In this document: positions 10,271 through 10,351 of the stretch, piece after piece | How positions within the stretch are numbered: the first letter of the stretch is position 1 | Layout: each line of letters starts with the position of its first letter | Assembly (NCBI GenBank): GCA_951406725.2 | Contig: OX597837.1 | Location: 6,882,001-6,946,000 of the forward strand | DNA length: 64,000 nt | DNA from: Octopus vulgaris | Taxonomy: Eukaryota | Direction: 5' to 3' | Translations under genes and position numbers: made by a program | The notes under the pieces: generated by a model | The model's database searches: none | What the model was told of the DNA's origin: nothing | The model's input: the letters and a program-made list of their open reading frames with translations, nothing else

Positions 10271-10271
<1 letters not shown>

Positions 10272-10351
10272 TTTATTTAAAGCAGCAGAAAATTCAACAA
10301 AACCTGTTACTCTGAGTTTCACGTTGCCGTTCGTCGGACAGTTTACTCCGG
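10271..10351 (-). ncRNA. ~80-bp insert in (TA)n containing a minimal type-I hammerhead ribozyme-like motif (10303-10341) and an AATAAA end
   Basis: Minus strand: ctgt CCGACGA ACG gcaa CGT GAAA CTC a GAG TA acag...aaataaa. Stems I, II (GNRA loop) and III all pair. Confidence 0.7.

Follow-up and report, generated by a model that had tools for sequence, protein, structure and literature searches.

In a lineage of Hydra-clade Penelope-like elements (PLEs) of Octopus vulgaris, the hammerhead ribozyme motif carries C instead of U at core position 4, and this C4 is the majority state of several successive subfamilies and not a product of decay. With stem II left free, 5,526 copies in the 2.8 Gb genome that was searched have CCGA vs 4,902 with CUGA. 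The lineage was recognised from an 81-bp insert at positions 10271-10351 of the window, which is the 64,000-nucleotide stretch of contig OX597837.1 (contig 24; positions 6,882,001 to 6,946,000) analysed here. The insert itself is a truncated and inverted, very likely inactive end of such a retrotransposon within (TA)n. The canonical U4 marks mainly the youngest subfamily, where it is likely a reversion.

The hammerhead motif was read on the minus strand of the insert, in the order ctgt-CCGACGA-acgGCAAcgt-GAAA-ctcAgag-TA-acag and then AATAAA, inside (TA)n. Every part of the motif and the AATAAA that had been noted in the original prediction could be located, as listed here together with the surrounding features:

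10341-10338 and 10307-10304, minus strand: stem I, CTGT with ACAG
10337-10331, minus strand: core, CCGACGA
10330-10321, minus strand: stem II, ACG-GCAA-CGT
10320-10317, minus strand: GAAA
10316-10310, minus strand: stem III, CTC-A-GAG
10309-10308, minus strand: TA, the predicted cleavage-site dinucleotide
between 10308 and 10307, minus strand: predicted cut, after UA
10304..10341, minus strand: the whole motif, a type I minimal hammerhead with a U4C core, a 3-bp stem II, a GNRA loop and a near-palindromic stem III
10271..10303, minus strand: pseudo-LTR stretch 3' of the ribozyme, up to the first insertion end; family copies end here or continue into the tail
10277-10272, minus strand: AATAAA
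10341..10351, plus strand: 11 nt from the 3' tail end of the element in inverted orientation (second insertion end), matching the reverse complement of the tail ends of family copies
10234..10270, unstranded: (TA)n target, left
10352..10439, unstranded: (TA)n target, right, with one CG interruption at about 10369-10370

Two pure (TA)n runs had been described around the insert; the right one is broken by the CG. At the first insertion end AATAAA is followed by a G and then by target TA. The inverted tail and the sense part share a 4-nt AAAC microhomology (10341-10344) by which they are joined, and the insert is the extreme case, with 11 nt of inverted tail and 70 nt of sense strand.

The motif has the GAAA, the UH site and the three-way junction with stems I, II and III that are expected of a hammerhead. 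The core is CCGACGA instead of the canonical CUGANGA, with the C3-G8 pair, G5, A6 and A9 kept, and the G10.1-C11.1 closing pair is replaced by A10.1-U11.1 (A/G and A/A in later subfamilies). A chance origin of the motif is contradicted by the excess of matches over reversed controls: a pattern with the insert's stem III and a 9-30 nt spacer matched 11,788 times in the genome and 2 times in the reversed control, and a relaxed hammerhead scan of 400 kb of arbitrarily chosen stretches gave 14 matches (CUGA in 6, CUGU in 5 and CCGA in 3) compared to 0 in reversed sequence. A structural scan of the window returned the insert hammerhead and two copies of another family, the 8245 family, at 8249 and 29857. 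The Rfam scan of the 80 bp gave no hammerhead match at E up to 10, and there was no hammerhead among the 150 of 443 matches listed, mostly microsatellite miRNA, of the whole-window Rfam scan.

It had been proposed that the insert is little more than a hammerhead plus AATAAA. Its relatives elsewhere in the genome speak against this and show it to be the end of an autonomous retrotransposon in truncated and inverted form. The DNA search with the insert resulted in 1,007 candidates, and 40 of them, once scored, gave 62 matches that were mostly 99-100% identical. Identity of 99-100% extends over 73-81 nt in 37 of the 40 best-scored loci, and dozens have both C4 and C7. When copies were traced upstream of the family hammerheads, an approximately 1.1 kb 3' UTR and then a Hydra-type ORF were reached. 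Intact 711-aa RT/GIY-YIG ORFs are flanked by repeats that carry the hammerhead and occur in 3,430-bp tandems. These ORFs belong to a sister subfamily with A at position 11.1, and each is a single frame with RT plus a GIY-YIG-type endonuclease at the C-terminus, in which the motifs RWK, DKT, YRDD, VVY..YTG and CxxC/CxH are recognised (RLRWK at 35, DKT at 113, CRLC at 667, CRH at 695). The CxCX5C linker is present in a copy of the C4 lineage (L109, CNCKDESSC) and in a second Hydra family described below, and in the youngest subfamily its second C has changed to F.

Several observations tie the C4 hammerheads to this ORF. ORF pieces 87-91% identical to those of the sister subfamily adjoin C4 hammerheads, either upstream or downstream, and at locus L114 a C4 hammerhead lies directly 5' of the ORF start. 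The C4 lineage has a UTR of its own, about 77-82% identical to that of the sister subfamily. For the C4 lineage of the window, the 150 best matches, of which 30 were read, contained only truncated or broken ORFs and no intact one. Pfam searches with three ORF pieces at E 0.01 gave 0 families, and the Hydra-clade call therefore rests on the motifs and on by-eye likeness to Hydra-1_Obim. The trees described below contain copies from this genome only.

The family shows insertion into (TA)n, pseudo-LTR tandems and truncated copies in inverted orientation that carry a tail on one side. At 30 loci the sense strand stops either just after AATAAAG or about 70 nt beyond, always at (TA)n, and the opposite side carries an inverted copy that is variably truncated. 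About half of the family copies continue about 70 nt past the AATAAAG end. Among the inverted insertions scored (in 69 loci), 18/19 have one end of each kind and 1/19 has two ends of the first kind; one end of each kind is as expected from two RT start sites, as in the available sections of the study on the Poseidon element of green anole (Frangieh et al., 2024; PMC11167929). In the element, the bases after the two ends are TA-like, CATAT and TGTA, which suggests priming on nicked (TA)n. The endonuclease would nick both strands of (TA)n, and reverse transcription would begin at two internal RNA sites, one just past AATAAAG and the other about 70 nt on. The TA-like RNA stretch after each start site could pair with the nicked target, and the two short cDNAs would then join at a microhomology, which in the window insert may have been AAAC.

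A quite different reading is that the 81 bp constitute a self-contained mini-element, a ribozyme with a poly(A) signal, mobilised as a unit. One sharp end is common to many copies, as such a unit would require, but no two copies agree in the other end, and there is a continuous gradation of copies up to the UTR and the ORF. In addition, no poly(A) tail follows, and the 11-nt start of the insert is an inverted tail. The mini-element was rejected, as no common 5' junction was seen across the 30 loci read, and we regard it as very improbable. AATAAA is conserved in the family, and since copies end 1 nt past it or run on, without poly(A) in either case, no role in polyadenylation is supported. Units of non-LTR retrozymes are 170-400 nt in size. 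Such retrozymes are defined, in the accessible part of the source, by head-to-tail tandem units each having a hammerhead (bioRxiv 2026.07.22.740005). The insert has a single motif and the tandems of its family are ORF-length, 3,430 bp. Having no ORF and no hammerhead partner in cis, the lone insert likely does nothing and is likely an ordinary dead fragment of the retrotransposon.

The prevalence of C4 was assessed by counting homologues. Homologues with mostly CUGAUGA had been named beforehand as the outcome that would make the insert a decayed copy, and the tally at core position 4 gave a different one, with 5,526 C4 and 4,902 U4 copies. When stem II was fixed as in the window, the window's subfamily comprised 312 copies, 250 with CCGANGA and 20 with CTGANGA. 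The patterns behind these two figures also fixed base 11.1, and for this reason the sister subfamily with A at 11.1 was missed at first. It has 3,518 copies, with U4 in all of the first 100 and CUGAUGA in 97 of them; this count alone seemed to favour a mostly canonical core, and the balanced figure is the one from the stem-II-free patterns. Among the first 100 listed copies of the window's subfamily, C4>T was found in 5 and G5>A in 4 (hand count). As the two changes are about equally common, symmetric CpG deamination from a C4-G5 master is indicated.

In an older set of 1,231 copies, retrieved by a pattern that fixed most core bases by design, the first 100 have C4 in 76, T4 in 22 and G4 in 2, the T4 share being about twice the rate of other CpG sites. 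Of the 1,194 loci retrieved with only the tail, the first 30 were read; the sense core is kept in 18, and the remaining 12 were truncated or rearranged and were left out of the count. By hand count these 18 have C4 in 15, T4 in 2 and A4 in 1, and G5>A is seen in 5, that is, just scattered copy-level decay of the core. No A4 or G4 master was seen, such bases being present in at most 2/100 copies of the listed sets.

It may be argued that the insert is a decayed canonical ribozyme in which U drifted to C after insertion. The large CUGAUGA sister subfamily is in line with this, as is CUGA in 26/26 Hydra-clade rows of File S2 of Craig et al. (2021), as far as that file was covered. Nevertheless, near-identical loci share both C4 and C7, C4 is linked to other diagnostic bases, and C4 is carried by the 5,526 copies mentioned above. 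Decay after insertion was rejected because C4 prevails in the subfamily, genome-wide and tail-only counts, and its probability is negligible. CpG/transition drift, which the original prediction had kept as a possible source of C4, runs from C to T; it erodes C4 and cannot have created it.

The history of position 4 was followed in trees built from the endonuclease end, with 37 rows for protein and 34 for DNA. They show a ladder of CCGACGA/U11.1, CCGATGA/U, CCGATGA/G and CTGATGA/A, the last having the shortest tips. U4 copies form one clade (99/100) inside or beside C4 lineages when the old C4 lineage is taken as the outgroup; this outgroup consists of two older copies of 61% and 69% identity, one with C4 and the other with T4 together with other CpG decay. 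The AU test does not reject the grouping of the younger C4 copies in one clade (p 0.166), so that the case for reversion is based on the state of the outgroup and the tip lengths. Under either topology one C-to-U change suffices, provided that the master of the old lineage was C4, as indicated by the older set (76 of the first 100) and the tail-only loci (15 of 18). More distant relatives in the genome, L281 and L282, have U4. Since these and all 26 published Hydra-clade rows have U4, position 4 was likely U at first, C for a long time afterwards and then U again. C4 would have been gained early in the lineage and kept during a divergence of the endonuclease to about 61-69% identity, and a CpG transition may have brought the youngest master back to U4. 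The older master lineages are characterised by C4, and the frequency of T4 copies in them is that of CpG decay.

Between the subfamilies, the free positions are N7 (C/U), loop II (GCAA/GGAA), the middle base of stem III (A/U/C) and base 11.1, which are the ones where variation is compatible with a dimer hammerhead. The stems and the remaining core bases are constant, although some patterns fixed core bases by design; the list of invariant columns of alignment A1 understates conservation, as L202 is reverse-oriented in it. As a separate observation, U-to-C at positions 4 and 7 relative to CUGAUGA equals A-to-G on the antisense strand, and A-to-I editing is a possible route to C4, inverted arms forming double-stranded RNA.

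The same CCGACGA core had been reported in the unrelated 8245 family of the window, and both the core and the unlike stems were borne out: the structural scan of the window found no common stem sequence. The copies that bear on recurrence are as follows:

8245..8380, plus strand: 8245-family copy with CCGACGA core, part of a roughly 190-bp SINE-like element
29790..29990, plus strand: second 8245-family copy with CCGACGA core
4084 of the window, minus strand: member of a hammerhead-like family with A6U, reading CUGCUGA
G000:C1:57.208-57.218 Mb (L145): tandem array of a second Hydra family, with YKDD and a C4 hammerhead

The 8245 family has 8,227 copies, and the first 100 have C4 in 71, T4 in 27 and A4 in 2, with G5>A in 5. 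The excess of T4 (27) over G5>A (5) surpasses symmetric decay, and a U4 subfamily probably exists there as well. In 30 loci no ORF of this family was found; its 5' end is fixed. The second Hydra family has 3,455 copies, C4 in 97 of the first 100, a protein that is 44.6% identical, 708-aa full-length ORFs and a tandem period of about 2,580 bp. One copy with stems as in this family, L279, has U4 in its core, which suggests a separate gain of C4 in the second Hydra family. In a fourth family of 16,446 copies, 96 of the first 100 have U instead of A6 (CUGU-N-GA), and N7 takes all four bases. In contigs of four other organisms both C and T are present at position 4 (presence only). A possible further family is seen at L277:3434 and L278:3553, with a CCGAAGA core, the same stem III and only a 3-bp stem I.

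Other mobile element remains are found in the window. Another Penelope-like element with RT (PF00078) and GIY-YIG (PF01541) in two frames lies at 40588-42818 on the minus strand, flanked by long inverted repeats at about 39660-40570 and 43320-44340; the hammerhead scan gave no convincing hammerhead at its ends. An open frame at 14180-14614 on the plus strand looks like part of a GIY-YIG endonuclease from a further Penelope-like family. Fragments of non-LTR retrotransposon RT regions are present at 59790-61359 (minus strand) and 30131-30571 (plus strand), one of them interrupted by a microsatellite. A near-perfect inverted repeat of about 45 bp at 37066-37185 forms a MITE-like hairpin, and its MIR5649 score is below the gathering cut-off.

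Dimer folding had been suggested earlier on the basis of the 1-nt loop of stem III. This loop cannot close, the palindromic stem III allows a dimer, and the hammerhead fold is predicted at -13.6 kcal/mol for the dimer vs -1.0 to -1.2 for the monomer. The hammerhead dimer is not the lowest-energy dimer: a competing dimer at -16.0 buries the core in another hairpin. RNAfold on the insert gave no hammerhead fold (z = 0.43), as expected of a dimer motif. An off-state hairpin as a trait of C4 was discarded, since alternative folds beat the hammerhead dimer in C4 and U4 copies alike. Two hammerheads of a full-length tandem array would pair via the ACUC-N-GAGU palindrome and cut after UA.

Published data on cleavage with C4 point in both directions. 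In the parts of the reports that were available, CCGA hammerheads of ZV1(-) and beta-vdl786, which are of type III, cleave in vitro (bioRxiv 2026.09.16.752053), and a U4C viroid variant stays infectious (PMC3088659, PMC9608096), with in vitro activity considerably lowered (PMC3088659). Pairwise mutagenesis gave low activity for all single CUGA changes (PMC9901934), and minimal PLE hammerheads are described as weak even with U4 (PMC4209133, in part). We consider it fairly probable that C4 was tolerated in master transcripts, with weaker and dimer-dependent cutting. The recurrence of the core had been read as a tolerated or selected variant. Of these, toleration is likely and selection of C4 doubtful; the U4 sister is at least as successful (3,518 copies).

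Alternatively, C4 may largely silence catalysis, the fold being kept for RNA dimerisation or as a landmark for RT beside its two start sites while the uridine turn drifts. Ribozyme mutants of the anole element insert unimpaired in vitro (PMC11167929, available part), the fourth family has A6U in 96 of the first 100 examined of its 16,446 copies, and single CUGA mutants are weakly active (PMC9901934). On the other hand, the master lineages keep G5, A6, G8, A9, GAAA and the UA site while N7 varies, and U-to-C is the position-4 change reported to be tolerated in nature, with no A4 or G4 master seen. Loss of catalysis is possible but unlikely.

It has also to be considered that the CCGA turn arose repeatedly in PLEs of this genome and was selected as a throttle against CpG mutation pressure, at least three families being involved, with the near-isogenic natural series C4/A-U, C4/A.G and U4/A.A recording the retuning of an active site; this is doubtful. 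The throttle as such, in which slower cutting lets tandem transcripts last for translation and reverse transcription, seems to us slightly more doubtful still. C4 does occur in at least three families despite CpG pressure back to U and is kept over long protein divergence, and loop II of the second Hydra family holds CTTCGG, which is complementary to the core. However, the youngest U4 subfamily, with its 3,518 near-identical copies, holds most of the intact ORFs seen, including all those read in the window's lineage, and the lowest-energy fold of the second Hydra family lacks pairing between core and loop II. Nor is the closed A10.1-U11.1 pair indispensable: 37 of the first 100 listed C4 copies (stem II free, hand count) have G11.1. 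The same C4/G11.1 subfamily weakens the proposal that C4 needs this closed pair.

Taken singly, the type of element, the design of the insertions and the U4C change are already known. Hydra-clade PLEs, as described in the covered parts of Craig et al. (2021; PMC8557442), similarly have a single ORF of about 710 aa with RWK, DKT and, at the C-terminus, an endonuclease that contains CxxC and CxH; they target (TA)n, leave truncated copies in inverted orientation with one tailed end, and have a hammerhead near the 3' end. Hydra-2_aMil of File S2 shares stem I CTGT/ACAG, stem III ACTC-N-GAGT and the same architecture. The 26 published Hydra-clade rows, collected with a descriptor seeded on the canonical core, all have CUGA, whereas the octopus lineage has mostly CCGA; the tail is about 70 nt in the octopus lineage compared to 30-40 in the published elements. 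The ribozyme sequence of the octopus family was not found in the covered part of that supplement. In metazoan PLEs, minimal type I hammerheads (Cervera and de la Pena, 2014; PMC4209133) likewise have a short stem I, a palindromic stem III that requires a dimer and thousands of lone truncated copies, and the core variant named in the available text is U3-A8, not C4. The same core change is reported in self-cleaving hammerheads of viroids and viroid-like RNAs (a PLMVd variant, ZV1 and betaviroid-like RNAs; PMC3088659, PMC9608096, bioRxiv 10.64898/2026.09.16.752053). According to the sections available, those are RNA replicons with monomer-folding motifs, of type III where stated, while the octopus motif is a type I dimer motif in retrotransposon DNA, with thousands of copies in a dated series of successive subfamilies. 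Poseidon resembles the octopus element in that its tail is delimited by two internal RT start sites, its target is AT-rich and its hammerhead lies upstream of the RT start sites; it belongs to another clade, and no priming homology is reported in the accessible text (PMC11167929), in contrast to the TA-like bases past both ends of the octopus element. The literature search found no CCGA in a PLE hammerhead; the survey of PLE variants by Lunse et al. (2017) and some supplements lie outside its coverage and may list C4. Nor was U4C as a long-lived master state of retrotransposon hammerheads, with a likely reversion, found in this search.

The function of the hammerhead in PLEs has been called unclear (PMC8557442), and cleavage was found to be dispensable in vitro (PMC11167929), as stated in the parts of these sources that were covered. 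Searches fixed on CUGANGA miss 5,526 of the 10,428 copies of the octopus lineage and nearly all of the second Hydra family. Successful masters carried a change at a position treated as invariant, for long and in several families. That C4 and U4 occur naturally as matched alleles within a single background makes the relation between cleavage rate and transposition directly testable.
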